Assembly: GCA_016708785.1 (NCBI GenBank)
Contig: JADJFC010000002.1
Location: 512,308-576,307 of the forward strand
From: Bacteroidota bacterium
GTDB taxonomy: Bacteria > Bacteroidota > Bacteroidia > AKYH767-A > 2013-40CM-41-45
DNA length: 64,000 bases
Direction: 5' to 3'
The notes under the pieces were generated by a model. It was not told the DNA's origin. It saw only the letters and a program-made list of their open reading frames with translations, and ran no database searches. A program made the translations under genes and the position numbers. Positions within the stretch are counted from its first letter, which is position 1. Each line of letters begins with the position of its first letter. This document shows, piece after piece, positions 2-62,904 of this stretch.

Positions 2-3000
2 GCTATTTTCATGATGGACTATGATGATGGGTTTGTTGCTTACCTGAACGGATACGAAATTGCAAGAGCAAATTTAAATGGTTATCCTCGTCCGGCATGG
101 AATACACTTGCTAGTTCTTCTCATGAAGCTCAACGATATCAAGGTGAACGCTTGATTCGTTTTTCGTAGATCCAACTTTCTTGAAATCAATCTTACGGCA
201 AGGAACAAATGTTCTTTCCGTTGAAACGCATGACGTTTCTGCATCATCAACTGATTTGTCATCAGAACCCTATTTATTTTTTGGAATGATAAATACAGGG
301 TCTACTTATAGTTCTACCCCTTCTTGGTTTCTTTCTCCTTCTGAAGATTACTTCAATGCAAAATTTAAATTGGCAAGAACAGGAGAAACGATCACCTTGT
401 ATAATCCGGGTGGTACAGTGGTCAATCAAGTTATTTGTCCTGCAATAGATATTGATAATTCATATGGAAGAAAACCGGATGGTGGTGTTAGCTTTTGTTA
501 TATGGCAACTCCAACCCCTGGAAACAGTAATAACTCAACGGTATGTTACAATGGATATGGAGGCCCTGTTATTTTCAGTAAGGCAAGCGGATTTTATAGT
601 TCATCACAAAATCTAACTTTATCAAGCCCAATTCCAGGAGCGCAAATACGTTATACTACGAATGGAAATGTGCCAAAACCGACCGATCAATTATACACTA
701 GCCAGATCCATATTACAAGTACAAAGGTAGTCAGAGCAAGAGTGTGTTTGTCAGGGTACTTACCCGGACCAACAATAACAAATACTTTTTAATTAATGAG
801 AATACGCATCTGCCTGTATTTTCTATCGTAACCGACTCATTAAATTTGTGGGATTATAACACAGGTATTTATGTTAAAGGCCCGAATGCTGCATCTGCAT
901 CACCTTACTTCGGTGCAAATTTCTGGAAGATTGGCAGAAACCTGCCTCAGTGGAATTCTTTGACAAAGGGCAAAACTCAATTATTAAATTTGATTCTGAT
1001 ATTAGAAATCTATGGAAATTATTCTCGAGCAAAAGACCAGAAAAGTTTCGAGATCAAATTAAGTGACCGTTATGGAACAAGTGAGATAAACTATCCTTTC
1101 TGGACAGACAAACCCTATGTTGATAAGGTTGAAAAGGTGATTGTACACAATGCCGGTACTGACTGGAATGTCGTTCATTTCCGTGATGGTTTAATGGAAA
1201 GAATTATGAGAAATACATATAGTGGATATCTCTCATCTGAACCTACGATCATGTTTCTTAATGGTGCATATTGGGGAGTCTATAATGTTCGGGAGCATAA
1301 CAACGCTACATGGATAAAAAATAACTACGGACTAGACAAGTCTGAAATTGATCTTTTGGATGAAAGTGGAAGCTCTATTGAAGTTAAAGAGGGAAGTGAT
1401 CTGAGTTTCTGGGATATGTATAACTATGCAACTTCACAAAATGCAAGTACTCAGTCGTACTATGATTATATGAACACTGTTCTGGATTTGAAAAATTATG
1501 CAGATTATTTTATTGCAGAAACTTATTACAATAATGGCGACTGGATAGGTGACTGGACAAATAATATTAAAATGTGGAGACCAAATTCCAGCGGTAGTAA
1601 ATGGAAATATTTATTGATGGATACGGACTACGGATTTGGATTGAAAGGAAGTGTGAACGATAACAGATTATCTATTGCAATCAATCCTGTCGCTTTTTCT
1701 TATTCTTCAGAAATGTTTGATGCAATAACTGACAACCCGACTTTTAAAAGGTACTTCATTAACAGGTATGCTGATTTGATAAATACAATTTATTTACCAT
1801 CAAATGTGCAGGATGAAATTGATCACTTCCAAGATTCAACTGCATTTGATATGGTTGACCATTTTGCAAAATGGGGTAGCAACACCTCAACTTGGCAATC
1901 AAATATCAATTCAATGAAGACATTTGTAAATGCTCGTCCTGATAAAGTTCGCGATCAGATTAAAGCGCAGTTTTCACTTGCAAGTAAAGTAACGCTTACT
2001 TTGAATTGTTCACCTGCAGGTTCAGGCCGAATTGAGATCAATACTATTACACCAACTAGTTTGCCTTGGTCTGGAGTTTACTTCAACGGAAATCCGGTAA
2101 CTCTTACTGCAATCCCTAATCCCGGGTATACATTCGATCATTTCAGATCTAATGTTGTTATCTCATCAAATAATTTTAATCAATCCGTTACCTATAATTT
2201 TACTGCTAATGATGTTATCACCGCATACTTTACCGGCTCTTCTACAAGCGCTCAAGTAACAATCAGTGAACTCAATTATAATTCAGATTCTGCTTCAAAT
2301 GCCGGAGACTGGATTGAATTATGGAATTATGGAAGTACTGCGTTAAACATTTCCGGATGGAAATTAAAAGATGGTCAGGACAATCACGTTTTTGCGTTTC
2401 CTACAGGAACGGTGATTCCTGCAAATGGATATTTAGTTGTTGTTGAAGATTCACTTAAGTTTGAAACTCAATTTCCAAACGTAAACAATAGGATAGGAGA
2501 GCTAGGTTTTAATTTCGGTAATGGCGGTGATGAAATACGATTGTTTAATCATGCAGATGTTCTTCGGCTTTCTTTTACTTACCAGGAGATCTCGCCCTGG
2601 CCATTTGAAGCAGATGGTGGAGGCTATACCTGTGAGTTAGTTAATCGAAATGTCAGTCTGAACGATGGCTCAAACTGGTTCGCCGGATGTCTAGGTGGTT
2701 CACCGGGTCGTGCATATAGTGCTTCTATTTCTACGACTTTGAGTATAAATGGAAATACTACAATTTGTTCAGGTGATAATTCAATTTTGCATGTTACGAG
2801 TGTACCCGGATATACTTATCAATGGCGTAGAAATAATATTTCAATTCCCGGTGCTAATGCTGATTCATTGATTGCTACACAAGCCGGAAATTATACTGTA
2901 TCGGTAAGTGATGCCGGTTGTTCTATTGTAACACCATCTGTAACATTAACAGTTGTGTCTGTTACTGCCGATCCTGTTACAACATCGGCATCTGCATGTG

Positions 3001-6000
3001 GCGCCAGTTCATTAACTCTGACGGCAAGTGCGTCAGATTCAATTTTCTGGTATGATGCACCTAATGGTACAGAGTTGGGAACCGGAGAAACATTTACTAC
3101 TCCGGTAATTTCGAGTACGACAACATATTATGTTAGAAGCAGTAGAAATTGTCCAAGCGGATACGTTACTGCGGTTGCAACAATAACGCCACAGGCAGCA
3201 ACACCATTGGTTAACGATGTATTCCGTTGTGGCCCGGGAACAGTAACACTTACTGCTTCTGACACTGCTACGATTCACTGGTATAATGCACCAATTGGAG
3301 GTGGGCTTTTAGAAACAGGAAGCACTTTTGTTACGAATATTATTCCTCATGATACTGTATTTTATGTTGAAGCCGGTGATTATTGTCCAAGTCAACGTAT
3401 CGAAGTTCATGTTACAATTAATACAACTGATTCACCGACTGCCAGTGATGTTTCAAGATGTGGATCCGGAACATTGACTTTAGATGCTACATCAACTGCA
3501 CCGATATTATGGTTTACATCTGAGTTTGGCGGTTCTTCAGTTGGAAGTGGCGCATCTTGGGTAACTCCAACATTAGCTGCTTCAGATACTTTCTATGCTG
3601 AAGCAAATAGTGGTTGTGCCAGTACGCGAACAAGAGTAATTGCTTTGGTCAACCCGATACCTTCGCCGCCAACTGCTGCAAATGTCAGCATCTGTGGTTC
3701 AGGAACAGTTGATCTGAATGCAATATCGACTGAACAAGTATATTGGTTTACTTCTTCTATTGGTGGTACATTATTAAATACAGGTACTGCTTTTACAACT
3801 CCGGTAATTTCTACGACAACTACATATTATATTGAAGCCGGTTATACATGTCGAAGTACAAGGACTTCAGTTCAGGCAATTGTCTTGCCTTTACCTGCAG
3901 CACCGACTGCTTCTGATGTATCAAGATGTGGTCCGGGATCTGTTGACCTACTTGCAAATTCACCTGAACTTATAACCTGGTATGATGCTCCTGTGGCAGG
4001 AAATTTACTGGGAACAGGCGACACTTACTCTACCCCTTCAATTTCAGTGACAACTCCATTCTACGCTGAAGCAGGTACTACTTGTTTAAGTGCTACACGA
4101 ACAACAGTGAATGCTATTATTGATGCCCCACCTGCTCCTCCAACTGCATCAGATGTTTCCCGTTGCGGAACTGGAGTAGTTACTCTTACTGCTTCCTCAA
4201 GTTTGACGATCTATTGGTACAGTGCTGCAACTGGTGGTTCACCAATTGCTACCGTACCAAGTTTCACGACGCCATCAATTTCAGCAAATACTACTTATTA
4301 TGTAGAAGCAGGTAATACTTGTCGCAGCTCGCGTATTCCTGTGAATGCTATTATTGCATCTCCTCCGGCTCCACCGACTGTTGTGGATGGTTCGCGATGT
4401 GGAACAGGTACTGTGGTTCTTAACGCTTCTTCACCTGAAACAATTAACTGGTTTGCTAATTCAAGTGGTGGTTCTTCACTTGGTACAGGAACAACTTTTA
4501 CAACACCTGTTATCAGTACAACAACAACATATTTTGCAGAAGCAGGTAGTGGATGTAATAGTTCACGTGTAGCTGTTCAGGCAAGTGTTACTGCCGCTCC
4601 GGGTGCGCCTGTTGCACCGGCTGTTTCGCGTTGTGGCACCGGAACTGTTACCCTTTCAGCAACCGGTACTCAAACGATTTATTGGTACAGTGCAGCATCC
4701 GGCGGAACTTTGCTTGCGACTGCTTCATCTTTTACGACTCCTTCAATTTCATCAACTACTACTTATTATGTTGAACAGGGAAATGGAACTTGTCAATCAA
4801 GCCGACTTGCAGTACAAGCTATCGTAAATTCAATTCCGTCTTCTCCGGTCGCTTCAAATGTAAGCCGATGCGGAACCGGAACAGTGACTCTAACAGCAAC
4901 TTCATCTACGACTGTGAATTGGTATTCTGCATCAACCGGTGGAACACTTTTGGGTACCGGATTATCATTCACGACACCTTCAATTTCCACAACTACTAAT
5001 TATTATGCTGAAGCAAATAATGGATGTGCAAGTGCAAGAACATCTGTAAGTGCAATCGTAAATTCAATTCCTGCTCTACCGGTAGCTTCCGATGTAAGCA
5101 GATGCGGAAATGGGACTGTTACTTTAGTTGCTACATCTTCTGAACAATGCTATTGGTATAGTGCTTCAACAGGTGGAACCTTATTGTTTACAGGCTCATC
5201 ATTTACAACACCAAGTATATCATCGACAACAACTTATTATGTTGAAACAGGGAACACTTGCCGAAGCAGCCGCGTTGCTGTCCAGGCTATCATAACTAAT
5301 CAACCTGCAAGTCCTGTTGTTACAGACGGATCAAGATGCGGAAGTGGAACTGTTACTTTAACGGCAACTGCTACTACACAAATTAACTGGTATACTGTTC
5401 CAAGTGGAGGAACTTCAATTGCAACAGGAAATTCATTTACAACACCAAGTATTACATCAACAACAATCTATTATACTGATGCAGGAACAGGCGCAGGCTG
5501 TATAAGCGTTCGTGTTCCTGTAACAGCTACAATAAATTCTATTCCATCTTCGCCATCGGCAAATGATGTTTCACGATGCGGTACAGGAACAGTAACTCTG
5601 ATTGCCACAGGTACACAACAGATCTACTGGTATAGTGCAGCTACGGGAGGTACATTACTATTTACCGGCAGTTCATTTACAACTCCTTCTATTTCGACAA
5701 CTACTACTTATTATGTTGAGCAGGGAAATACTTGCCGAAGTACAAGAATTCCTGTTGATGCAATGATTATTGCACCACCAGTATCTCCAGCTGTAACCGA
5801 TGGTAGTCGTTGTGGTGCCGGTACTGTTGTATTAAATGCAACTTCAACAACACAAATAAACTGGTATACGTCAGCTTCCGGTGGAGCTGCAATTGCTACT
5901 GGAAGTTCATTCACAACTCCTTCAATTTCTGTTACTACTACTTATTATGCAGATGCAGGAACGGGTTGTAATAGCTCACGTGTTCCTGTCGTAGCGACTA

Positions 6001-8597
6001 TAAATTCAATACCATTAAATCCTTTCGCAACAGATGTTTCAAGGTGTGGTCCTGGAGTTGTTAGTTTGACAGCAACTTCAACTGCTCAGATCAGATGGTA
6101 TTCTGCTGCAAGCGGAGGAACATTATTATTTACCGGATCAAATTTCACAACTCCTTCTTTGGCTTCAACTACTACTTATTATGTGGAAGCAAATAACGGT
6201 TGCGCATCTTCTCGTATTCCTGTGCAGGCAATAATTAATTCAATACCGGCTGACCCTACTGTAACCGATGGTTCTCGCTGCGGAACAGGTACTGTTCAAC
6301 TCAGTGCTTCTTCGCCCGTTAGTGTAATCTGGTATGCAAACGCTTCCGGAGGATCTTCAATCGGTACCGGACTTACTTTTACTACTCCCTCAATTTCTAC
6401 TACGACAACATTCTACGCCGAAGCATCAAATGGATGTAGCAGTGCACGTGTCCCTGTAGAAGCAGTTGTAAATATCTTACCAAGTTTACCGGTTGCAAAC
6501 AGTGCTTCATTATGTAATGCCGGATCATTGACATTATCAGCAACTTCAAATGGACCATTATCGTGGTACAGTGCTGCAACAGGTGGAACGTTATTAGGAA
6601 CAGGTGCAACTTTTGTTACTCCTGTCATCTCAGCTACAACTACCTATTATGTAGAAGCTGGCGATGTGTGCAGAACAGCAAGAGTTGCTGTTGATGCTAT
6701 CATCACTACGCCACCAACTGCACCTGTTTTAGTCGATGGTGATCGTTGTGGTACTGGTTCGGTGACTCTTAATGCTACCAGCGCCACTCAAGTGAACTGG
6801 TATTCTTCAGCCAGCGGTGGAACTTTACTAGGAACGGGACTTACTTTCAACACCCCTTCAATCAGTACGACAACTACTTTTTATGCAGAGGCCGGATTAG
6901 GTTGTAATAGTGCAAGAGTTTCTGTCCAGGCAATTGTGAATCCAATTCCTTCTGATCCGATCGCTGTGAGTGGAAACCGCTGCGGAACTGGAAGTATTAC
7001 ATTAACGGCTACATCGCCTGAACAAATTTATTGGTATTCATCACCAACCGGTGGTAGTTCTATGGGTACAGGATCAACATTCAATACTCCTTCGGTCTCT
7101 ACTACAACTACCTTCTATGTTGAGACCGGTGATATTTGCAGAAGTAATAGAGTCGCAGTTGCTGCTGTCGTGAATCCGATTCCTTCTGCACCTGCGACTT
7201 CAGATGTTTCAAGATGTAACAATGGTACAATTACATTGAATGCAGTTTCAAGTGAAACAATTTTCTGGTATGATACACCATCAGGAGGAAATTTATTGTT
7301 TACCGGACCGTCATTTACTACGCCTTCATTATCTGTTTCTACTCCTTATTATGTAGCAACAGGCGATATCTGTATTAGTCCTCGTGTTCAGGTTTATGCA
7401 ATTATTACTAATCCGCCTGCGGATCCGGTTCTTGTCGATGGATTTACTTGCGGTACAGGTTCTGTTATGCTAACCGGAACTGCGTCCATTCAGATCAATT
7501 GGTATGATGCAGCAAGTGGTGGTACTTTACTAGGCATAGGTGATACATTGTTTACTCCAGTGATCTCCTCTAATACGGTATTTTATGCAATTGCCGGTTT
7601 GGGCTGTAACAGTAATGTGGTTTCTGTCAATGCAACTGTAAATTCAATCCCTGCTGATCCAACAACTCAAAATGCTTTTAGTTGTGGTCCGGGTTCAGTA
7701 ACATTAAATGCAACTTCTACCGAACAATTGTATTGGTATGATTCAGCAACAGGTGGTACTTTGCTTTTAACAGGAAGTTCTTTCATCACTCCATCTATCT
7801 TGACAACAACAACCTATTATGTTGAAGCAGGTGATATTTGTAGAAGCAATCGTATTGCAGTAATTGCTTCCATAAATGCAGTATCAGAGATTTCTTCATT
7901 TACGTCATCAAATAGTTGTGGTGAAGGCATAATAACTTTGGAAGCAATTTCATCCGATCCAATAAGTTGGTATGACTCACCAGGTGGTACACTTCTGGGA
8001 ACAGGGAATACTTTTAATACACCTTTGCTTACTGCATCACAGACTTTTTACGCTATTGCCGGTATTGATTGTCCAAGTCCTTTTCAAGCGATTGATGCAA
8101 CAGTTTTTGATCTGCCAGTGGTGGATCTTGGTCCGGATACTTTATATTATCAAACCGGACAGACTGTTATCCTTGATGCAGGTGCAGGATTTGATAGTTA
8201 CTTATGGTCAAATTCGGAGTCGACGCAGCAGATATCGGTGACTATTCCGGGTTTCTATGAAGTTACAGCAACAGATACAAATGGTTGCCTGGGTTCTGAT
8301 ATTGTTTATGTAGATTTCACAAATGCAATTGTTCAGAATGAGTTGAGTCAATTGATTCAAGTATATCCAAATCCGACACATGATAAATTCATTGTTAATT
8401 TGAATAGTAAATCATTCAAAAAATTGTCAATGCGTATTATGAGTGCAGATGGAAGATTAGTGGAGGCGAAAGTTGTCAGTTCTCCTTCCGGAAATTACCA
8501 TGAAGAATTCTCGCTTCAGAAATATTCGGCCGGTGTTTACTTCCTCGAACTACAAAACGAAACTCAGAAAGCAACTGTAAAACTTATTTTACAATAA
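2..8597 (+). CDS. Giant secreted CotH-kinase-like / lamin-tail-domain protein with 22 tandem ~80-aa Ig-like repeats and a T9SS C-terminal sorting domain. The 5' end lies outside the window. The frame is broken twice near the 5' end (T5 runs at 160-164 and 786-790), giving ORF pieces 2-169, 181-792 and 744-8597.
   Basis: Chitobiase/hexosaminidase-C-like segment (GAQIRYTTNGNVPKPTD). CotH-like core (HNAGTDWNVVHFRDGLMERI, AYWGVYNVREHNN, YFINRYADLIN). LTD motif (SAQVTISELNYNSDSASNAGDWIELWNYGSTALNISGWKLKD). 22 repeats of the type SRCGTGTVTLTATS..WYSAASGGTLL..SFTTPSISTTTTYYVE. C-terminus VYPNPTHDKFIVNL...GVYFLELQ matches a Por secretion tail. Adding one T at each T5 run makes a continuous frame (..ERLIRFFVDPTFL.. 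and ..TNTFLINENTHLPVF..). Confidence 0.8.
2960..8100 (+). repeat. In-frame tandem array of 22 copies of a ~240-bp (80-codon) repeat inside the giant CotH/LTD gene
   Basis: Periodic recurrence of the CG.G(T/S)V.L.A.S......WY.A..GG.LL.TG..FTTP.IS.TTTYYVEA...C.S.R..V.A.I unit in the translation. Copies are diverged at the DNA level but keep a conserved Cys pair and the W-Y/TTYY core. Confidence 0.85.
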
Positions 8598-8623
8598 ACA
8601 CTTCAAATATAATTTATAGAAAA

Positions 8624-8655
8624 GGGAAAGCAAAAATGGCTTTCCCTTTTTTTTT
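8624..8655 (+). terminator. Rho-independent terminator of the giant CotH/LTD gene
   Basis: Perfect 8-bp stem GGGAAAGC / GCTTTCCC with a 7-nt loop, followed by a T9 run, 27 bp after the stop. Confidence 0.8.
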
Positions 8656-8700
8656 GACCCTTGACCCTTGACCCTTGACTTTTTTGACTTCTGACTTTTT
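8655..8700. repeat. Heptamer tandem repeat (TTGACCC)x3 continuing as TTGACTT variants, directly after the terminator T-run
   Basis: Direct reading: gacccttgacccttgacccttgacttttttgacttctgacttttt. Confidence 0.7.
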
Positions 8701-8744
8701 ATTTTTGACATGAAAGATTAATTATATGTCTACCTTTACCCGGC

Positions 8745-10504
8745 ATGGTAACAAAAAAAATCGGCATTTGGCGTAGAAGGTATTTTGGAACACGAACTTC
8801 CTTAATGCTTACAAGCGTGGTGATCGGTTTGCTTACTGCCTTATGTGCTGTTGTATTGAAAAACAGTGTTCATTTTATTCAGCAATGGGTTCATCAGATT
8901 TCAATTGCTGAAAATTCACATTATCTTCTTTTTGTTTTTCCAACACTTGGTATACTCCTTACCGTCTTTTATACTCAAGTTTTCAGAAACGGTGATTTGG
9001 GAAGAGGAGTAACCAATATAATTTTTGCTATTTCCAGAAAGTCGAGTTACGTCGAGAAAGATAAATTGTATTCGCAAATGCTCAGTAGTATTCTGACAGT
9101 TGGATTTGGTGGGTCAGCAGGACTTGAAGCACCTATTGCAGCAACCGGTTCAGCGATAGGAAGTAATACAGCAAGGTGGCTGCATTTTAATCTTAAAGAG
9201 CGGACACTGTTGCTCGCTTGCGGTACAGCCGCAGGAATCTCTGCGATTTTCAATGCACCAATTGCCGGAGTTATTTTTGCATTTGAAATTCTTTTGGTGA
9301 ATATGCCCATGCCGGTGATTGTCCCATTACTAATTGCATCTGCATCATCTGCACTGTTATCCAAGTTGATCTATTCCGGACAACCATTTGTGTTGATCAC
9401 CAATTCATGGTCTTCAGATCACCTGGGTTACTATGTTCTTTTTGGAATTATTGCAGCGCTGCTCTCTGTGTATGCAATCAGAATTTACTTTTTTATTGGT
9501 GATTTGTTTTATGGGAAAAAGCAGGTATATCTGAAAGCAATCATTGGTGGATTATTTTTGGGTGCACTAATTTTTTTATTTCCTCCACTTTATGGTGAAG
9601 GTTATGATAGTGTACTAAACCTTTTACACAAGGAATCTACTGCACTGATTTCTGATTCAGCATTCATTCCAAATGCCGGAGCATGGACTGTTGTTGTTTT
9701 TGCAATTGCACTCATGCTATTGAAAGTTGTCGCAACTTCATTGACCGTTGGGGCAGGAGGGAATGGTGGTATGTTTGGCTCTTCGCTCTTTACCGGAGCT
9801 ATGTGCGGATATGCATTTTCGCATTCAGTCAATTTGCTAGGATTAGCACATTTAGATGAAGTCAATTTTACAGTAATTGGGATGGCTGCAATGATGAGTG
9901 GAATTATTCATTCGCCGCTGACAGCAATATTTTTAATTGCAGAGATCACCGGCGGCTATGCCTTGTTTGTTCCTCTGATGGTTGTTGTATCAATAGCATA
10001 TCTTGTTTCAGGTATTTTGAACCATTCTCTGTCTACACAAAAAAACTTGCGCTGAAAGGTGATCTGATCACCACTGATAAAGACAAATTGGTTCTTGCAA
10101 AAATGAATCTTCAGGATTATCTGGAAACTGATTTTATTCCAGTGAATGAAAATGATACACTTGCAGACTTGATCCATGCTATCGAAAATTCAAAGAGAAA
10201 TATTTTTCCTGTGGTGAATGAAGAAAACAAACTGGTTGGTGAAATCCTACTTGATAATGTACGCCATGTTATGTTCTCCAAAGAACTTTATGACAAAACA
10301 TTCATAAAAGATCTTATGATCACTCCCGCAGCAATCGTAGATGTAAATGACAGTATGGAAAAAGTTCTGAAGCTATTTGACGAAACCAATCTGTGGAACC
10401 TCCCTGTAACCGATAAAGGCAAGTATGTCGGTTTTGTTTCCAAATCAAAAATATTTACACAGTATAGGCATCATTTGATTAAGGATGCTGTTGTGCCGGC
10501 TTAA
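8745..10504 (+). CDS. Voltage-gated ClC-family chloride channel with a C-terminal CBS-domain pair. The frame is broken at the A7 run 10039-10045 (ORF pieces 8745-10055 and 10088-10504).
   Basis: ClC signatures (GFGGSAGLEAPIAATGSAIGS, GVIFAFEI, multiple TM helices). Downstream frame encodes a CBS pair (IFPVVNEENKLVGEILLDNV, NLWNLPVTDKGKYVGFVSKSKI). Reading through the A-run with one extra A gives ..STQKKLALKGDLITTDKDKLVLAKMNLQDYLE.., a continuous protein of about 586 aa. Confidence 0.8.
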
Positions 10505-10511
10505 TTGAGTT

Positions 10512-10609
10512 AAAGGTCAAAGGTCAAAGTTAGCTTCGTAGTCACCTACGAAGCCAAACCTTTGACCTTTGACCTTTGACCTTTAACCTTTAACCTTTGA
10601 CCTTTGACC
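10512..10609. terminator. Bidirectional terminator. A 9-bp hairpin (GCTTCGTAG tcac CTACGAAGC) is flanked on the left by (TCAAAGG)2 and on the right by (CCTTTGA)7 heptamer repeats, forming an extended palindrome between convergent genes.
   Basis: Direct reading. The left and right heptamers are reverse complements of each other. The right array runs up to the lpdA stop codon at 10609-10611. Confidence 0.7.
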
Positions 10610-11997
10610 TACAAGTGTATGCACTCCCCATACGCCTCAGCCACTGCCTCCATGATCGCTTCACTCATAGTCGGGTGAGGGTGGATGGTCTTAATAATTT
10701 CGTGACCTGTTGTTTCTAATTTACGGGCAGCAACAACCTCTGCTACTAGCTCAGTAACATTTGCACCTATCATGTGCGCTCCCAGCCATTCGCCATATTT
10801 AGCATCGAAAATTACTTTTACAAAACCATCTGCATTACCACCGGCTTTTGCTTTACCACTTGCTGAGAATGGAAACTTTCCAATTTTAATTTCATAACCT
10901 GCTTCTTTCGCTGCTTTCTCTGTGTAACCAACAGATGCAATTTCCGGAGAACAATAAGTACATCCCGGAACATTTTTATAGTCAATCGGTTCAACATGCA
11001 TACCTGCAATTTTTTCTATACACGTAATAGCTTCATGAGAAGCAACGTGAGCGAGTGCAGGAGTATTCAGTACATCTCCAATCGCGAAGTAACCCGGCAT
11101 ATTTGTCTGATACCATTCGTTGACAAGAATTTTTCCTTTGTCTGTAATGATACCAACTTCTTCCAAACCTATATTTTCAATATTTGAAGAAATACCTACT
11201 GCTGAAAGTACAACATCACACTCCAATATCTCTTCGCCTTTTTTACTTTTCACTTTTACTTTACATCCTGCTCCTGATGTGTCTACACTTTCAACTGTTG
11301 ACTCGAGCATGATCTCTATTCCTGATTTCTTGAATGAACGGGCAAGTTGCTTTGATACATCTTCGTCTTCGATTGGAACAATATTTGGCATAAATTCTAC
11401 GATCGTTACCTTGGTACCAATTGAATGATAGAAATATGCAAACTCAACGCCGATTGCGCCTGAACCTACAACCACAATTGACTTTGGTTGCTTTTCAAGA
11501 TTCATCGCTTCACGATAACCAATCACTTTTTTACCGTCTTGTTTTAAGTTCGGTAATTCACGTGAACGCGCTCCTGTAGCTATAATGATATTTTTTGCTT
11601 CGTAAGTTTGAGTCTTTCCCGCACTGTCTTTTACTTCGATCTTACGTCCACTTTTTAATGTGCCATAACCGGAGATCACATCGATCTTGTTTTTCTTTAA
11701 CAAAAAAGTAACTCCTTTGCTCATTGCGTCGGCTACACCACGGCTTCGTTTTATCATCGATGGGAAATCAGCTTCAACACCGGTAGTTTTTATTCCATAG
11801 TCCTGAGCATGCATCAAATATTCAAAAACCTGTGCGCTTTTTAATAATGCTTTCGTCGGGATGCATCCCCAATTTAAACAAACTCCACCTAACTCCGATT
11901 TCTCAACAATTGCTGTTTTCATTCCTAATTGCGCCGCACGAATTGCTGCTACATAACCACCGGGACCACTGCCCAAAACAATAAGATCGTAATTCAT
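10609..11997 (-). CDS. lpdA: Dihydrolipoyl dehydrogenase (E3 component)
   Basis: N-terminal FAD fingerprint MNYDLIVLGSGPGGYVAAIRAAQLG, redox-active disulfide GGVCLNWGCIPTKALL, 462 aa. Confidence 0.95.
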   Translation of the reverse strand: MNYDLIVLGSGPGGYVAAIRAAQLGMKTAIVEKSELGGVCLNWGCIPTKALLKSAQVFEYLMHAQDYGIKTTGVEADFPSMIKRSRGVADAMSKGVTFLLKKNKIDVISGYGTLKSGRKIEVKDSAGKTQTYEAKNIIIATGARSRELPNLKQDGKKVIGYREAMNLEKQPKSIVVVGSGAIGVEFAYFYHSIGTKVTIVEFMPNIVPIEDEDVSKQLARSFKKSGIEIMLESTVESVDTSGAGCKVKVKSKKGEEILECDVVLSAVGISSNIENIGLEEVGIITDKGKILVNEWYQTNMPGYFAIGDVLNTPALAHVASHEAITCIEKIAGMHVEPIDYKNVPGCTYCSPEIASVGYTEKAAKEAGYEIKIGKFPFSASGKAKAGGNADGFVKVIFDAKYGEWLGAHMIGANVTELVAEVVAARKLETTGHEIIKTIHPHPTMSEAIMEAVAEAYGECIHL

Positions 11998-22425: not shown

Positions 22426-22790
22426 GGGGCTGCCCGGATTTGACAGCGGGTGAAATTGGTATGTAAGCATGTCGAGGGTCGGGAGTAAGCCTCGTAAAAC
22501 ACGGTTCCCAAATGCCTAAATGGCAACAACAATTACGCGTTAGCCGCTTAATCAGAAGATTAATCCGCTTTCTACCTTTTGAGAACCTGTTCACCCGTTT
22601 TCATGATTAAGGTATCGTATGGTGAATGCTCTCTGATGATGTTTCCTGCATCAGGTCTAAGATTCAAGGAAAATACGTTGGATGATAGCGCGTGTTTAGC
22701 AGTCATTCCGCCGACAATCAATAAACACTAAACATGTAGAAAGCGTATTGATTGCTTGTCTGGACGAGGGTTCAACTCCCTCCAGCTCCA
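22426..22790 (+). ncRNA. ssrA: tmRNA (transfer-messenger RNA)
   Basis: 5' GGGGCTG...GATTTGACAGCGGG tRNA-like start. Internal tag ORF GGC AAC AAC AAT TAC GCG TTA GCC GCT TAA = (A)GNNNYALAA* at 22522-22551. 3' T-arm and acceptor GGACGAGGGTTCAACTCCCTCCAGCTCCA pairs with the 5' end; the CCA is not encoded. Confidence 0.85.
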
Positions 22791-22825
22791 CAAAACCCCG
22801 CAGGGGATTTGAACTTTAATCTTAA

Positions 22826-22878
22826 ACCTAAACTTAAACTTCCTTTCAAAGAAGTGTTGGTTTAGGTTTTTTTGTTTA
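22826..22878 (+). terminator. Hairpin plus T-run downstream of ssrA
   Basis: AAACCTAAAC ... GTTTAGGTTT followed by T7. Confidence 0.45.
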
Positions 22879-22910
22879 TGTTAAAGTTTAAGCAACGTCT
22901 ACGCAAATCA

Positions 22911-42015: not shown

Positions 42016-42029
42016 TAAATCAAAAAAGT

Positions 42030-42134
42030 ATCTCTGCGGATTTTCTGCGTACTCTGCGTAAATCTGCGGGAAATAATTCACGCAGTATTTTTCTCCCGCA
42101 GATTTACGCAGAGTACGCAGAAAATCCGCAGATT
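42030..42134. repeat. 105-bp palindromic element: 38-40-bp perfect inverted arms (CCCGCAGATTTACGCAGAGTACGCAGAAAATCCGCAGA) around a ~24-bp spacer, each arm holding four CTGCG direct repeats. A second imperfect palindrome lies at about 42185-42262.
   Basis: Direct reading; lies between the convergent trmH-like and FAD-protein genes. Confidence 0.85.
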
Positions 42135-42276
42135 TTTTATTAATCTTTAAAGGAAGATGATTGAGTTAAATAGATTTTTGTAAATGTTGGAGTTTGAGTT
42201 TGTGGTGTGAAGTGTGGGGAGTTACTTGCTACACACTCCACACTCCAACTCAAACTGAACAAACCATCCAATAAAA

Positions 42277-43866: not shown

Positions 43867-44319
43867 TTAAAACAATCTTTTATCCCAAAAATAATCTTTG
43901 CTTCTAATTAGCTTTACTTTTTTAGAAAACTCAGGATGCTCTGTATTTATAATGTAATTGTATTCATTTGTAATGACTGCAGATGGGATCTTGAGTACCA
44001 GTGATCTTTTGGAATTGTACTATTCACTTCCAATTTGTTGCAGAGTAGAATAAGATTTTATGGATCGCCAGTTTTTTGGTAAGTTTTTAATTAATATTTG
44101 ATCAAATAAATTCTCTTCATCTGCAAGAAAAATTACCATTACAGCAAATTCATTTTTAGGTACTATTTCTTTTCGGTGAATAATTAATTCAAGTGTTGAT
44201 AATGATCTGGAAGAGTCTGTATAAATCACAGATTCCCCATCTTTATTCCAACGGTTGGCTTTCCCTGAAGAAGAGAGTTTTGTCGAAAATTTCTTTGTTG
44301 AAATTCTAAATGTTTCCAT
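43867..44319 (-). pseudogene. RES-domain toxin gene (150 codons) interrupted by an in-frame TAG at 44020-44022
   Basis: The 99-aa ORF 44020-44319 (..RWNKDGESVIYTDSSRSLSTLE..) continues in the same frame past the TAG as YNSKRSLVLKIPSAVITNEYNYIINTEHPEFSKKVKLIRSKDYFWDKRLF*. The TAG sits where RES proteins carry a Trp (..IGSE[W]YNSKRSLVLKIPSAV), so TGG to TAG is the likely change. Confidence 0.65.
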
Positions 44320-44741
44320 TAAACATTGTCTCCGTATTCCATTGCAGTTAACCGGTCATCTATAAATTTTATTCCACTAAACGTTTTTAAATTCTTTCCG
44401 GGAGATTCGTTATCGAAGTAAAAATTTTCAGTTTTTAACCAATTTTTAAATTCAATATCAGAACCAAAGACATTTATTCCATGTTTAAACAGGGCAATCA
44501 AAGCAACAGTGTGCTCTTGAAGTCTGTCGCTCAATTGTTTTCCACTCGACTTGTAACTTCTGAATGTTTTGACATTCAGATCAAGGATTCCCGAAATTTC
44601 AATGTCATTCAGATTAGAATAATTTTTAAATGCAGCGAAGTATTTATAGGTGATTTCCCACGTATTTAAATATTCCTGAACTAAAATCAAATCGACACAT
44701 TTAGGAATTTTGTCTAAAAACGAAACTGATTTTGTTGCCAT
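44319..44741 (-). CDS. DUF2384-type (MbcA/ParS/Xre-like) antitoxin partner of the RES toxin
   Basis: 140 aa; C-terminal FGSDIEFKNWLKTENFYFDNESPGKNLKTFSGIKFIDDRL matches the RES-antitoxin C-terminal domain pattern. Its stop overlaps the RES start. Confidence 0.6.
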   Translation of the reverse strand: MATKSVSFLDKIPKCVDLILVQEYLNTWEITYKYFAAFKNYSNLNDIEISGILDLNVKTFRSYKSSGKQLSDRLQEHTVALIALFKHGINVFGSDIEFKNWLKTENFYFDNESPGKNLKTFSGIKFIDDRLTAMEYGDNV

Positions 44742-56858: not shown

Positions 56859-59342
56859 ATGTTTTCAGAAAATTCAGATAACTTGAACCCACTACATTTA
56901 GCCAATATCATCGACGATGATACAGAGTTCATCCCTTTGCTTTCGCAAGAAGACGAAGACCAAATGAACAAACAGGATATTCCTGAAGTACTTTCAATTT
57001 TACCATTACGAAATACTGTATTGTTTCCCGGTGTTGTAATTCCAATTACTGTCGGTAGAGATAAATCAATCAACCTGATAAAAGATGCTTACAAAGGTGA
57101 TAAGATCATCGGTGTTGTTGCACAACGTGATCAGGCAATTGAAGATCCAACTTATCCGGACCTCAATCAATTCGGAACCGTAGCGCAAGTGATCAAAATG
57201 TTGCGTATGCCTGATGGAAATACAACGATCATCATCCAGGGTAAGCGACGTTTTAAACTCGATGAATGTGTTCAAACAGAACCATACATCCGATGTAAGA
57301 TCGTTCCATTTCCTGAGAAGTCGGCGAATACGGCTGATAAAGAATTCATGGCTATCGTCGGTTCTTTGAAAGATCTTGCATTGCAGATCATTCAGCATTC
57401 TCCAAATATTCCAGCGGATGCAGGATTTGCAATTCGTAATATTGAGAGTCATTCATTCCTGATCAATTTCATTTGTTCAAATATGAATCTTGATGTTTCT
57501 AAAAAGCAAGAGCTTTTGGAAATCGAAGATCATAAGGAAAGAGCCAATCGTGTTCTTGAATATCTAAGTAAAGAACTTCAAATGCTTGAACTGAAAAATC
57601 AGATTCAAAGCAAAGTTCGTACTGATATCGATAAACAACAACGAGAATATTTTTTGAACCAACAACTTCGTACTATTCAGGAAGAGTTGGGTGGAAATAC
57701 TCCCGATCGTGAAGTTGCAGAATTGAAAGAACGTGCAAAGACGAAGAAGTGGACGAAAGCAGTTGAAGAAACATTCAAGAAAGAATCGGAACGATTGTCA
57801 AGAATGAATCCTGCCGCAGCTGAGTATTCTGTTATCCTGAATTATCTTGAATTGCTTTTAGATCTTCCCTGGGGAGAATTCACGAATGATAATTTCGATC
57901 TGAAGCATGCTCAAAAAGTGCTGGACAAAGATCACTACGGACTGGAAAAAGTAAAAGCACGGATACTTGAATATCTTGCTGTATTGAAATTGAAAAGAGA
58001 TATGAAATCTCCGATCATGTGCCTTTACGGCCCTCCCGGTGTTGGTAAAACATCGTTAGGTAAATCGATTGCTAAAGCCCTTGGAAGAAAATATGTTCGT
58101 ATGTCACTCGGTGGATTACGCGATGAAGCGGAAATCCGTGGTCATCGTAAAACATACATTGGTGCAATGCCTGGACGTATTATTCAAAACCTGAAGAAAG
58201 CTAAATCATCGAATCCGATTTTTGTATTGGATGAGATTGATAAATTGGGAAATGATTTTCATGGCGATCCTTCATCTGCATTACTCGAAGTATTAGATCC
58301 TGAACAAAACAATACGTTCTACGACAATTATGTTGAGATCGATTACGATCTTTCGAATGTATTATTCATTGCTACTGCAAATTCATTGAGCAGAGTGCAA
58401 CCTGCCTTGCTTGACAGAATGGAGATCATTGAGATAAACGGGTATACGATAGAAGAAAAAGTTCAGATTGCAATCAAACATCTTGTGCCAAAACAACTGG
58501 AAGCACACGGACTAAAGAAAGAGCACATTAAACTTTCTCCGAAAATAATTGAATACATGATCGATCGCTATTCACGTGAATCCGGTGTTCGTGGTTTGGA
58601 GAAAAAAATTGCTTCTCTTGTAAGAGGTATTGCAAAGAAAGTTGCAATGGAAGAAAAGTATGATCCTGTTATTACTGAAGAAGATGTTATCAAAATACTT
58701 GGCGGCGCAATTTATCAGGCTGATAAATATCAAGGCAATGATGTTGCAGGAGTAGTAACAGGTCTGGCCTGGACTTCTGTAGGTGGCGATATTTTATTCG
58801 TTGAAACTTCGATAAGCAAAGGCAAAGGTAAGCTCACGATCACCGGAAACCTTGGTGATGTAATGAAAGAATCAGCGGTAATTGCACTTGCATATCTTAA
58901 AGCCCACAGTGATCAATTGAAACTCGACTACAGGATCTTCGAACAGTGGGACATACATATTCACGTTCCTGAAGGCGCAACTCCAAAGGATGGTCCTTCA
59001 GCCGGTATTACAATGTTGACATCACTTGCTTCTGCTTTTACACAACGAAAAGTAAAAGGGCAGTTAGCAATGACAGGGGAAATTACATTACGTGGCAAAG
59101 TACTTCCTGTTGGTGGAATAAAAGAAAAAATTCTTGCTGCTAAAAGAGCAGGAATAAAAGACATCATACTTTCGAAAGACAATAAGAAAGATATCGATGA
59201 AATTAAAAAGGACTACATCAAGGATATGAAATTCCATTATGTAAGCGAAATGATCGAGGTGGTCAATCTTGCATTACTGAAAGAGAAGGTGAAAAATCCA
59301 ATTGATGTAAAATATTTCCCTGAAGAAAAAAGTTCTAAATAA
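56859..59342 (+). CDS. lon: ATP-dependent Lon protease
   Basis: 827 aa; Walker A CLYGPPGVGKTSLGKSIA; protease domain with catalytic Ser in PKDGPSAGITM. Confidence 0.95.
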   Translation: MFSENSDNLNPLHLANIIDDDTEFIPLLSQEDEDQMNKQDIPEVLSILPLRNTVLFPGVVIPITVGRDKSINLIKDAYKGDKIIGVVAQRDQAIEDPTYPDLNQFGTVAQVIKMLRMPDGNTTIIIQGKRRFKLDECVQTEPYIRCKIVPFPEKSANTADKEFMAIVGSLKDLALQIIQHSPNIPADAGFAIRNIESHSFLINFICSNMNLDVSKKQELLEIEDHKERANRVLEYLSKELQMLELKNQIQSKVRTDIDKQQREYFLNQQLRTIQEELGGNTPDREVAELKERAKTKKWTKAVEETFKKESERLSRMNPAAAEYSVILNYLELLLDLPWGEFTNDNFDLKHAQKVLDKDHYGLEKVKARILEYLAVLKLKRDMKSPIMCLYGPPGVGKTSLGKSIAKALGRKYVRMSLGGLRDEAEIRGHRKTYIGAMPGRIIQNLKKAKSSNPIFVLDEIDKLGNDFHGDPSSALLEVLDPEQNNTFYDNYVEIDYDLSNVLFIATANSLSRVQPALLDRMEIIEINGYTIEEKVQIAIKHLVPKQLEAHGLKKEHIKLSPKIIEYMIDRYSRESGVRGLEKKIASLVRGIAKKVAMEEKYDPVITEEDVIKILGGAIYQADKYQGNDVAGVVTGLAWTSVGGDILFVETSISKGKGKLTITGNLGDVMKESAVIALAYLKAHSDQLKLDYRIFEQWDIHIHVPEGATPKDGPSAGITMLTSLASAFTQRKVKGQLAMTGEITLRGKVLPVGGIKEKILAAKRAGIKDIILSKDNKKDIDEIKKDYIKDMKFHYVSEMIEVVNLALLKEKVKNPIDVKYFPEEKSSK

Positions 59343-59404: not shown

Positions 59405-60082
59405 TTGGAGAAAATGAATTCTGAAAACCATCGCATTGCAGTCATTGCCGGGTCTACCGGATTAGTTGGACATGAATTACTGCAACTTTTGCAAAATGAT
59501 TCGACCTATGATAAAGTTTATTGTCTCGTCCGGAAGAGTAGCAATTTGAAACACCCGAGAGTAACAGAATTAGTAATTGATTTTGATCGGATTCCTGAAT
59601 CTCTTTCTGAGATTAAATCTGTTGACGATATTTATTGCTGTCTGGGCACTACGATCAAAACTGTCGGTGGATCGAAAGAAGCATTCCGTAAAGTAGATCA
59701 CGATTATCCTCTTGCACTGGCAAAGTGGGGTGAAAGTATGAATGCAAAAAAACTATTAGTCATCTCTGCAATGGGAGCAGATGCGAATTCTTCAATTTTC
59801 TATAATAAAACAAAAGGCGAAATGGAGAATGATATTTCGAAATTGAAAATTGAATCGATAACATTTTTCAGACCATCACTTCTTATTGGTGACAGAAAAG
59901 AAAATCGCCCGGGAGAGAAAATTGGAATTGCGATTGCCAAAGCACTGTCTTTTTTATTCATTGGGCCACTTAAAAACTACAAAGGCATACATGTCGCCAA
60001 AGTAGCAGCCGCTATGCTGAGGGCTTCGAAACAACAGGTGAGTGGGATGGCAATAGTTTTGTCAGGGGAAATGAACATTTAA
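59405..60082 (+). CDS. NAD(P)H-binding Rossmann-fold protein (atypical SDR / NmrA-like)
   Basis: IAVIAGSTGLVGHELLQLL N-terminal dinucleotide-binding motif; 225 aa. Confidence 0.65.
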   Translation: MEKMNSENHRIAVIAGSTGLVGHELLQLLQNDSTYDKVYCLVRKSSNLKHPRVTELVIDFDRIPESLSEIKSVDDIYCCLGTTIKTVGGSKEAFRKVDHDYPLALAKWGESMNAKKLLVISAMGADANSSIFYNKTKGEMENDISKLKIESITFFRPSLLIGDRKENRPGEKIGIAIAKALSFLFIGPLKNYKGIHVAKVAAAMLRASKQQVSGMAIVLSGEMNI

Positions 60083-60090
60083 CTAATAAC

Positions 60091-60165
60091 GAATATCTAA
60101 TATCTAATAACTGATAACGGCGGCAATCAAAAGATTACCGCCGTTATTCGTTATTCGTTATTAGT
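60091..60165. terminator. Bidirectional terminator. A ~15-bp hairpin (ATAACGGCGGCAATC aaaa GATTACCGCCGTTAT) has arms extended by TAATAAC / GTTATTC heptamer-like repeats.
   Basis: Direct reading between the convergent oxidoreductase and rho genes. Confidence 0.65.
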
Positions 60166-60170
60166 TAGAT

Positions 60171-61960
60171 TTACGCATTCATCGAGACTAAAAACTCCTC
60201 ATTCGACTTAGTTCCGCGAATTCTGTCAAGCATAAATTCCATTGCTTCCAAAGGATTCATATCTGCAAGGTGATTTCTCAAGATCCACATACGTTGAAGC
60301 ATTTCTTTGTCAAGTAGCATGTCTTCACGACGAGTACTCGATGCAACAAGATCGATAGCAGGGAAGAGGCGCTTGTTGGAAATTTTACGATCCAATTGAA
60401 GTTCCATGTTTCCTGTTCCTTTGAATTCTTCGAAGATAACTTCGTCCATTCTTGAACCTGTATCGATCAATGCTGTTGCAATGATCGTTAAACTTCCACC
60501 ATTTTCAATTTTACGAGCTGATCCAAAGAATCTCTTTGGTTTGTGAAGTGCATTCGCTTCTACACCACCGGAAAGTACTTTTCCACTTGCAGGAGCAACT
60601 GTATTATATGCACGAGCAAGACGAGTAATTGAATCCAAAAGGATAACAACATCATGTCCGCACTCAACAAGGCGTTTTGCTTTTTCTAATACGATGTTGG
60701 CAATTTTTACGTGTCTTTCTGCAGGCTCATCAAATGTCGATGCAACTACTTCAGCTTTTACGCTACGTGCCATGTCTGTAACCTCTTCCGGACGCTCATC
60801 GATCAATAGAATGATCATGTACACTTCCGGATGGTTTGCTGCAATTGCATTGGCAACATCTTTCAATAACATTGTCTTACCTGTTTTCGGCTGGGCAACG
60901 ATCAATCCACGTTGTCCTTTTCCAATCGGAGCAAACATGTCCATGATTCGAGTAGAATAATTTGACTTGTCGCCACTAAGGTTTAATTTCTGATATGGGA
61001 ACAGTGGAGTAAGGTAATCGAAATGGATACGATCACGAACGATAGCCGGATCCAGTCCATTGATAAATTCAACTTTTACGAATGGGAAATATTTTCGCCT
61101 TCACGTGGAGGACGAACATAACCTCTTACCGTATCACCGGTTTTCAATCCGTATAATTTGATCTGTTGTTGGTTTACATACACATCATCAGGAGAAGTCA
61201 AGTAATTAAAGTCACTTGAACGTAAGAAGCCAAATCCATCAGGCATGATCTCCAAAACTCCATCAACTGCAATCAGTGTATCCGGATCAATAGGAGCTTC
61301 AGGAGTAACGTTGTCACGTCGCTGTTGTTGCTGACGGAAATTGTTACCGGTATTGCCGAAAGAATTTCCAGGATTCGATGGAAGATTATTGAATTGAGTT
61401 TGTGCAGGCTGCATTTGTTGTTGAGCCGGACGACTTTCAAATTCATTGCGCATTTGTTGCGGGCGATGAACCGGTTCGTTTCGTTCAGCAGGATCAGAAA
61501 CAACTGATGGAGCTGTAGCCTGAGGTGTTGGCGTCTGGCGAATCGGTGGAGTCTTCACACTTGGCTCGAGAACGATTGGTGCTTTTTTAAGTTCAGAATC
61601 CTCCAGAGGAGATACACGTTTACGCTTAAGTCTTCCACCTGACTGATCTTCTTCAGCATTGTTTTTTGCAGCGACAACTTTTTCAGTTGGAGCAGGAGCA
61701 GATTTCGTTTCAGCTTTTTCCGGCTTCTCGACCTTATCAGCTTTCTCAATCTTTTCCGGTTTAGTGTTTTTTGCCGGTGACTTTGCTGTTAAAGCGTCAC
61801 GAATGTTTTTCGATTCTTCAGGATGCAAAGCTTGCTGATCTAAAATTTTGTAAATCAATTCCTGCTTACGAAATTCATCGTAGTTGGGAAGGTTCATCAG
61901 TCTTGCAATCTCTTTTAACTCACTTACGAGTTTGTCATTTAATTCAAGTATATCGTACAT
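60171..61960 (-). CDS. rho: Transcription termination factor Rho with a long Q/N/P-rich N-terminal insertion. The frame is broken at 61092-61095 (ORF pieces 61076-61960 and 60171-60944).
   Basis: N-terminus [23 protein letters not shown]; RNA-binding domain [22 protein letters not shown]; ATPase core [18 protein letters not shown]. Adding one A in GAAAAT on the coding strand gives ..[59 protein letters not shown].., continuous. Confidence 0.9.
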
Positions 61961-62310: not shown

Positions 62311-62762
62311 TATGATTCAAAGAGTCCAATCACTTTTTCTGCTAGGTGCAGTTATACTATGTGTAATTTTAATGTATGTCCCGATCTATGAACTTGTGCC
62401 TCTTAATGATTCGATGACACTGGCAGCCGGACAAGCTGCCAATACAAAGTTTACCATTTTTTAATAGTGCGATTCTGGCAATAATGAATGGCGCAATTGG
62501 AGTACTGGCTCTTATATCAATCTTCATGTATAAGAATCGTAACTTGCAAATTCGTGCTACTAATCTCGCTTTGTTAATAAATTGCGGCTTGATCGGACTA
62601 CTCTTTTTCTCTGCTGATTCTATGTCGACTACATTTCAATCTAAAGTACATTATTTATACGGTAGTTACCTTCCGGTGATAATTGCAATCTTCCTCTTTT
62701 TGGCAATACGTTTCATTAAACGGGATGATGCACTTGTGCGCTCGGCGGACCGCTTGCGGTAA
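62311..62762 (+). CDS. Small multi-pass membrane protein. A frame break at the T6 run 62459-62464 joins ORF 62311-62463 to 62484-62762.
   Basis: Hydrophobic helices (LFLLGAVILCVILMYV, GAIGVLALISIFMY, LINCGLIGLLFF, LPVIIAIFLFLAI); removing one T fuses the two frames. Confidence 0.45.
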
Positions 62763-62904
62763 TTAATAATTAATAATCATTACTGTCCTATAAAACTCAT
62801 TTCATAGGGCATTAAATTCTAGCTGCAAGTTCTTGATTTCAATTTTTCTTTTTTTGGTTGATACCTGAAGGTTCTAGCGCAACAAAATCTATCTTAGTTG
62901 CACC

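Follow-up and report, generated by a model that had tools for sequence, protein, structure and literature searches.

Stem-loops at gene ends in a 64,000-nucleotide stretch of DNA from an uncultured Bacteroidota species (contig JADJFC010000002.1, positions 512,308 to 576,307; hereafter the window, meaning this whole stretch) are flanked by tandem arrays of seven-nucleotide units, which change in number between strains and in sequence between species. The window arrays are a Bacteroidota example of the long-known heptanucleotide repeats of bacteria, and not a new lineage-specific family of terminators. With somewhat better than even confidence, the structures are read as stem-loops at gene ends, which most probably serve convergent gene pairs as bidirectional terminators or as insulators and whose flanks are heptanucleotide simple sequence repeats (SSRs) of the kind described as short tandemly repeated repetitive (STRR) elements or long SSRs.

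Heptamer arrays and stem-loops at gene 3' ends

Tandem repeats in the window were located with Tandem Repeats Finder (TRF) and with an exact-run scan for periods 4-15. Eight exact runs of period 7 are present, against 0-2 for each other period in this range, and 100 dinucleotide shuffles of the window, used as the chance baseline, give a mean of 0.09 period-7 runs and a maximum of 1. All the arrays lie outside long open reading frames (ORFs), in 3' intergenic regions (IGRs). Of the four IGRs that hold exact period-7 arrays, three separate convergent genes, an arrangement found in 5 of the 29 IGRs of the window (P ~0.01), and all five convergent IGRs hold long hairpins. The association with gene 3' ends that a preliminary description of this DNA had suspected is thus borne out, the arrays being placed around hairpins at expected terminator positions.

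The three sites of that description, numbered 1 to 3 in Table 1, exist as it stated, their hairpins and heptamer arrays being confirmed by sequence and by TRF, and each has a GC-rich stem-loop just past a stop codon. Arrays on both flanks of the hairpin, which had been claimed throughout, are found at sites 2 and 3; at site 1 only the 3' side has an array. The left and right arrays of sites 2 and 3 are indeed reverse complements around the GC hairpin, forming an inverted pair able to fold into one stem-loop. As RNA, the two strands of the composite stem fold at -45.9 and -50.8 kcal/mol for site 2 and at -39.7 and -42.8 kcal/mol for site 3 (-40 to -51 kcal/mol together), the z-scores being about -9 to -10, and not one of 200 shuffles reached the same stability; over the window and relatives, the stems range from -40 to -58 kcal/mol. 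The stem is followed by a T-run at site 1 (T9) and at 42033-42132 (T6); what follows it at sites 2 and 3 is limited to U-rich heptamers. The units CCTTTGA, TTGACCC and GTTATTC have no G-tracts, and the site-1 unit, rotated to CCCTTGA, differs by one base from the CCTTTGA of site 2.

The structures are closely bordered by genes. Site 2 follows the stop of a CBS-domain ORF at 10504, and its right arm adjoins the stop codon of lpdA (10609-10611, minus strand). The left arm of site 3 begins at the stop codon of a gene for an NAD-binding protein (59405..60082), and the right arm ends just short of the rho stop codon (60171, minus strand). Site 1 lies upstream of a CLC channel gene (start 8745) and downstream of a gene for a 2617-aa type IX secretion system cargo protein with Ig_7 and Por_Secre_tail domains (744..8597), of which its hairpin looks like the canonical intrinsic terminator. 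A simple terminator scan gave no hit at the arrays and missed this hairpin too, we believe because the stem runs into the T-run.

A function in termination is suggested by these positions and by the orientation of the arms. As a rule, an A-rich left arm is paired with a T-rich right arm (among 22 pairs chosen without regard to orientation, 16 have an A-rich left arm), so that a transcript of either direction would end in a stem and a U-rich stretch, as at bidirectional intrinsic terminators. Canonical A-tract/T-tract terminators occupy equivalent positions at 42033-42132 and in two related loci, L292 and L298, and from all three lines together we infer that the stem-loops probably terminate transcription.

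Variation among strains and sister species

Between strains of the species, which is found in many activated-sludge assemblies, the arrays resize in 7-base steps while the hairpin core stays. The right arm of site 2, with 7 units in the window, has 8 (2+4+2) in five assemblies; three further assemblies carry a diverged 8-unit form and one carries only 4 units, with hardly any change in the core and left arm among the strains sampled. The site-1 array has 3 or 4 copies, depending on the strain; the copy-number variation that the preliminary description had raised is therefore real at both sites. One other assembly with site 3 was found and shows no difference there, and the palindrome at 42033-42132 is 100% identical in 9 assemblies. 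With length varying in whole units and the core stable, the arrays behave as hypervariable SSRs on a stable hairpin.

The architecture also recurs in relatives of the organism, whose genes were called crudely as longest ORFs in the fetched loci. Directly 3' of lpdA, where the window has GTCAAAG arrays, the locus with 94% LpdA identity to the window (L300) carries (GTGAAAA)3.9, a 22-nt core and then ~17 TCACTTT/CCTCTTT units. At 92% identity (L298), (GTTCAAA)3.4 abuts its inverted array and a separate A7-stem-T7 terminator follows; at 90% (L292), ~7 TTCTGAA-like units precede an A7-GCGAAG hairpin-T7 and then inverted units; at 86% (L293), there are two unrelated arrays (GTGAATG and TACTTTA) without a hairpin; and at 83% (L296), a plain terminator. 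The post-lpdA regions of the relatives fold at -43 to -58 kcal/mol. Arms of the same locus are complementary at 12-14 of 14 bases, and arms taken from different loci at a mean of 8.8 of 14; the arms therefore co-vary while the unit turns over. The clade retains arrays at the post-lpdA site, and both unit and core turn over between species.

Across orthologous sites from 6 species and more than 10 strains, the changes are in-place changes of unit or length, and filled or empty sites with a target-site duplication were not seen. Units are reused within a genome: among the loci sampled, one unit is present at two separate loci in each of the window, L292 (ATTTAGA), L293 (GTATAAG and GGGACGA) and L217 (GGTCAAA).

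Array density seems to differ sharply among close relatives. The whole 21-kb locus L296 is devoid of period-7 arrays; over an equal length, 5-7 exact runs are present in the sister species L292 and L293. At the expected thrB-thrA junction of L292 (3390-3610), a 220-nt complex consists of ~15 GTTGCGA/GTTACGG units, a 43-nt core and ~10 AACTTAC units; its arrays are not mutually complementary. At the corresponding place, the window has a gap of 5 nt and L293 one of 40 nt.

Occurrence across phyla and metagenomes

Arrays of the form (CCYTTGA)3 were found in at least 116 stretches, whose sources include Cyanobacteria, Bacteroidota, Acidobacteriota, Geobacter and Nitrospirota. Nostocales, the group in which STRR repeats are classically known, are prominent among the matches listed: CCYTTGA is arrayed in Nostoc, Calothrix, Rivularia and Tolypothrix. 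The flanks of array-bearing genomes, again among the matches listed, contain 100 period-7 runs in 850 kb against at most 18 for any other period, and the units are diverse. The inverted form, sought in metagenomes as AAGGTCAAAGGT-N6-36-ACCTTTGACCTT, is present in at least 120 stretches, which represent at least 86 flank clusters on contigs of GC 0.33-0.71, with mostly unrelated cores; the counts of both forms are lower bounds. Of the cores of at least 14 nt among the matches listed, 15% have a stem of their own of at least 6 bp, against 1% of shuffled cores. Since CCYTTGA arrays occur in many phyla and the inverted form at no fewer than these 86 independent loci, and sister species carry other units, the family is not specific to one lineage, as the preliminary description had suggested it might be.

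At some orthologous sites the inverted structures persist across 80-85% DNA identity, one case being the interval between apparent dnaK and dnaJ genes. In four metagenome loci of GC ~0.5 (L140, L215, L162 and L238), an inverted GGTCAAA-type hairpin lies just ahead of the apparent dnaJ start (MSNRDYYE...); the hairpin is retained although the loci are only 80-85% identical in DNA, and one arm has a 7-nt indel. In a GC-rich acidobacterial genome assembled from a metagenome (Vicinamibacterales, L073, 4837-4967), inverted GGTCAAA/TTTGACC arrays surround a core of a tandem 14-mer (GGTACCTGACACCT) x4. In viral contigs, CCTTTGA arrays are found in 14 stretches and composition-matched permuted heptamers in 16, 2 and 1; with one permuted unit as frequent, CCTTTGA does not look special there.

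Features of the window

The window holds more such regions than the three first reported; those at 42033-42132, 42186-42262, 22808-22892 and 62760-62811 are included in Table 1.

Table 1. Hairpins and repeat arrays in the window, with coordinates, strand and basis of assignment.
Feature	Coordinates	Strand	Basis
Site 1 hairpin, AAAGGGAAAGC-loop-GCTTTCCCTTT and T-run (T9)	8620..8655	+	sequence; 14-bp stem by fold
Site 1 array, (TTGACCC)3.7	8654..8679	+	TRF
Site 1 degenerate TTGAC-containing units after (TTGACCC)3.7	to 8709	+	sequence
Site 2 left arm, (AAAGGTC)2.6	10512..10529	+	sequence, TRF, exact-run scan
Site 2 core hairpin, GCTTCGTAG-TCAC-CTACGAAGC	10533..10554	unstranded	sequence, strain comparison
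Site 2 right arm, (CCTTTGA/CCTTTAA)7.6	10558..10610	+	sequence, TRF
Hairpin 3' of tmRNA gene, hexamer (TTAAAC / GTTTAG) arms	22808..22892	unstranded	TRF; convergent IGR
Site 4a, 39-bp perfect-stem palindrome, ~10-nt CTGCG-containing arm repeats, A6/T6 flanks	42033..42132	unstranded	sequence, fold
Site 4b, imperfect hairpin, 7-nt periodic arms (GGAGTTT GAGTTT... / ACACACT CCACACT CCAACTC)	42186..42262	unstranded	TRF, fold
Site 3 left arm, imperfect TAACTAA/TAATATC/TAACTGA units x5.6	60080..60118	+	sequence, TRF
Site 3 core GC hairpin, ACGGCGGCAATC-AAAA-GATTACCGCCGT	60117..60144	unstranded	sequence, fold
Site 3 right arm, (GTTATTC/GTTATTA)3.7	60142..60167	+	sequence, TRF
Minor site, (TAATTAA)2.6 then 8-bp hairpin, starting at stop codon of 62484..62762	62760..62811	+	exact-run scan, fold

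Sites 4a and 4b share the convergent IGR 42016-42276. The site-4a palindrome folds at -75.8 kcal/mol (z -14.6) and is unusually long for a terminator. The transfer-messenger RNA (tmRNA) gene upstream of the hexamer hairpin (22426-22793, plus strand; Rfam 147.5 bits) encodes the tag peptide GNNNYALAA, and it is the sole match in the window to the Rfam 15 covariance models at gathering score.

Two genes next to the main sites are split. The ORFs at 8745-10504 for the CLC channel (436 aa) and the CBS domain (138 aa) form one 586-aa gene in other assemblies of the species, so that a frameshift or assembly error in the window near 10055-10088 is probable. Site 3 lies directly downstream of the gene for the transcription termination factor Rho, which is divided in the window (60171-61960, minus strand) into two ORFs, probably by another frameshift: the N-terminal one, of 294 aa, carries a long low-complexity insertion, and the other, of 257 aa, is the ATPase part. 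Exact-protein look-ups for 59405-60082, 56859-59342 and 62484-62762 gave no matches. Going by the genes called in the matching loci L119-L126, the minus strand at ~44021-44741 carries a RES-domain and Xre_MbcA_ParS_C gene pair that resembles a toxin-antitoxin module.

Discussion

Heptamers have been described as the most abundant class of long SSRs, with a slippage hypothesis put forward for them (Mrazek 2007, as cited in PMC4679880 and PMC4692102), and STRR heptamers were described in Calothrix in 1990 (Mazel 1990, as cited in PMC4692102). The arrays studied here resemble them in being tandem 7-nt intergenic units, with period 7 dominant, apparently few units per genome and a length that varies among close relatives, and the CCYTTGA unit of the window is itself arrayed in the Nostocales genera named above. 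They differ in their host, an uncultured activated-sludge Bacteroidota species, and in that many come in pairs, inverted about a hairpin at the 3' end of a gene. To our knowledge, co-evolution of arms at a single orthologous site has not been reported for STRR repeats.

The GGGAATC heptamer SSRs of Xanthomonas are 89-93% intergenic and lie on average 28 nt past the upstream ORF (Rehm et al. 2015, PMC4692102); 16% are located between convergent and 7-8% between divergent ORFs, 70-75 inverted pairs are able to form stem-loops, and lengths vary among related species (PMC4692102). Our arrays share the 3' intergenic location, the preference for convergent over divergent genes, the inverted pairs and the variable length, whereas the Xanthomonas units are G-rich and form G-quadruplexes, and the window units, which have no G-tracts, often enclose a separate GC hairpin core. 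The TAACTGA direct repeats of Beggiatoaceae, Cyanobacteria and five Bacteroidetes are likewise heptamer arrays with indels in 7-nt steps (MacGregor 2015, PMC4679880), and in Beggiatoaceae they lie mostly just upstream of start codons in forward orientation (PMC4679880). The site-3 units (TAACTAA, with TAACTGA itself at 60109-60115) form one sequence family with them, but flank a hairpin between two stop codons. Like bidirectional intrinsic terminators, the structures have a GC-rich stem between convergent genes, extended by A-rich 5' and T-rich 3' flanks; unlike them, sites 2 and 3 carry periodic heptamer arrays in place of plain A/U runs, and their activity is putative. What is added to the picture of the known heptamer repeats is the presence of GC hairpin cores between the arms and the co-variation of the arms at one orthologous site.

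For gene-end stem-loops with SSR flanks, the resizing of the arrays would follow from replication slippage. The complementarity of the arms could be maintained by selection for a long stem; it could also arise by hairpin-templated copying from one arm to the other, or by expansion of both arms out of complementary seeds at the base of the stem. Several points weigh against this reading. The putative terminator function is argued from position and structure. In broad sets convergent IGRs are favoured over divergent ones to a modest degree (odds ratio 3.1, P 0.02), arrays across phyla are barely nearer to perfect hairpins than random positions (4.7% vs 2.5%), and a T-run past the array is found in ~10% of metagenome examples against 5% of controls, with no plain U-run at sites 2 and 3. 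In the relatives, some arrays lie within operons or divergent IGRs. Plain slippage, moreover, leaves unexplained both the reuse of a unit at separate loci of one genome and the occurrence of the site-2 core and arms beside unrelated genes (L205 and L244). Unit reuse and the recurring core therefore keep two further explanations in contention, a mobile element and a set of binding sites.

A dispersed mobile palindromic element, of the repetitive extragenic palindromic (REP) and bacterial interspersed mosaic element (BIME) type or the miniature inverted-repeat transposable element type, would have its core and arms copied as a unit by a trans-acting transposase or by recombination. The likeness to REP/BIME sequences, which RAYT (Y1 transposase) proteins mobilise, lies in imperfect palindromes in 3' IGRs and in copies of core and arms at some non-orthologous sites. 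The site-2 core (GCTTCGTAG-N4-CTACGAAGC) with GGTCAAA/TTTGACC arms is found again after a major facilitator superfamily transporter gene in L205, and a degenerate core with arms stands between unrelated genes in L244; a palindrome beginning 'AAGGTCAAAGGTCGAAAGTC...' occurs in several flank clusters of contigs of ~0.5 GC; and the apparent reuse of few units by each genome would also fit. Two near-identical copies 6 kb apart in L217 point the same way, but they follow genes with identical 3' end sequence, so segmental duplication explains them too. Only three non-orthologous copies of the site-2 core were seen, on different contigs, and the cores differ in nearly all of the 86 or more independent loci. 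The arms are tandem arrays that vary independently by unit steps, as is typical of SSRs, and the units differ between the sites of the window and, at one site, among sister species. No target-site duplication or empty site was seen, and none of six window proteins scanned is a transposase, although no search aimed at transposases was made in the window. Such an element is, on balance, unlikely.

The arrays might instead be periodic sites for an oligomeric RNA- or DNA-binding protein that modulates hairpin formation, termination or mRNA stability, with the unit co-evolving with its binder. HutP, for instance, reads NAG triplets at 7-nt spacing. Genome-specific unit families at separate loci and the retention of arrays at orthologous sites such as the apparent dnaK/dnaJ junction would agree with this, as do proposals of a heptamer-binding partner in Nostoc (bioRxiv 10.1101/2022.06.06.494920) and of post-transcriptional regulators for the TAACTGA repeats (PMC4679880). 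No candidate protein was identified, however; the units differ among sites of one genome, copy number varies freely among strains, and arrays of one composition-matched permuted heptamer are as common as those of CCTTTGA in viral contigs (16 vs 14 stretches). We regard binding sites as decidedly improbable.

The preliminary description also saw half of a -35-like box in the heptamers, which would make the arrays promoter elements of a downstream gene. TTGAC or its complement GTCAA is contained in the units of sites 1 and 2 as claimed, and upstream of the CLC gene, the site-1 array is followed by a TAnnTTTG-like motif, TATTTTTG, at 8700-8707. Site 3, site 4 and the arrays of sister species have no TTGAC, and a sigma-70 scan gave no site overlapping 8598-8744 or 10505-10610. 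Housekeeping promoters of Bacteroidota use the motifs -33 TTTG and -7 TAnnTTTG. At site 2, which has a stop codon on either side, a promoter would have no gene to drive. A promoter role is very improbable, and the -35 likeness of TTGAC is incidental. Chance or an assembly artefact is scarcely credible: the apparent frameshifts in the CLC/CBS and rho genes do suggest an error-prone assembly, but the same arrays recur in independent short-read and long-read assemblies (NCBI, ENA, JGI and Logan), and the excess of period-7 runs over shuffles, together with the strain data, effectively refutes it. Two further candidates were dropped: units serving as stop codons in all three frames, with which sites 2 and 3 are inconsistent, and integron attC sites or clustered regularly interspaced short palindromic repeats (CRISPR), as the units do not fit GTTRRRY and spacer structure is absent.

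Beyond slippage on stable stem-loops, the hairpins at gene ends may undergo continual rebuilding out of inverted heptamer arrays, with both arms changing unit together, in this Bacteroidota clade and perhaps across phyla; we offer this as a speculative and rather unlikely extension. If true, it would call for a dedicated hairpin-templated mechanism that generates or homogenises the repeats, or for a periodic stem read by a conserved factor, and it would define a distinct 'periodic-arm' class of terminators and give a handle on the origin and function of bacterial heptamer repeats.

For annotation, TTGAC-like motifs inside such arrays are not promoters. In conclusion, the species, which abounds in activated sludge and is represented in many public assemblies, supplies natural alleles that differ in array length alone. 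Its sister species carry different units at one site with the arms still complementary, and one close relative is free of arrays within the 21 kb sampled around that gene, lpdA. Together they form a comparative system for slippage, for the co-evolution of the arms and for any effect on termination between convergent genes.

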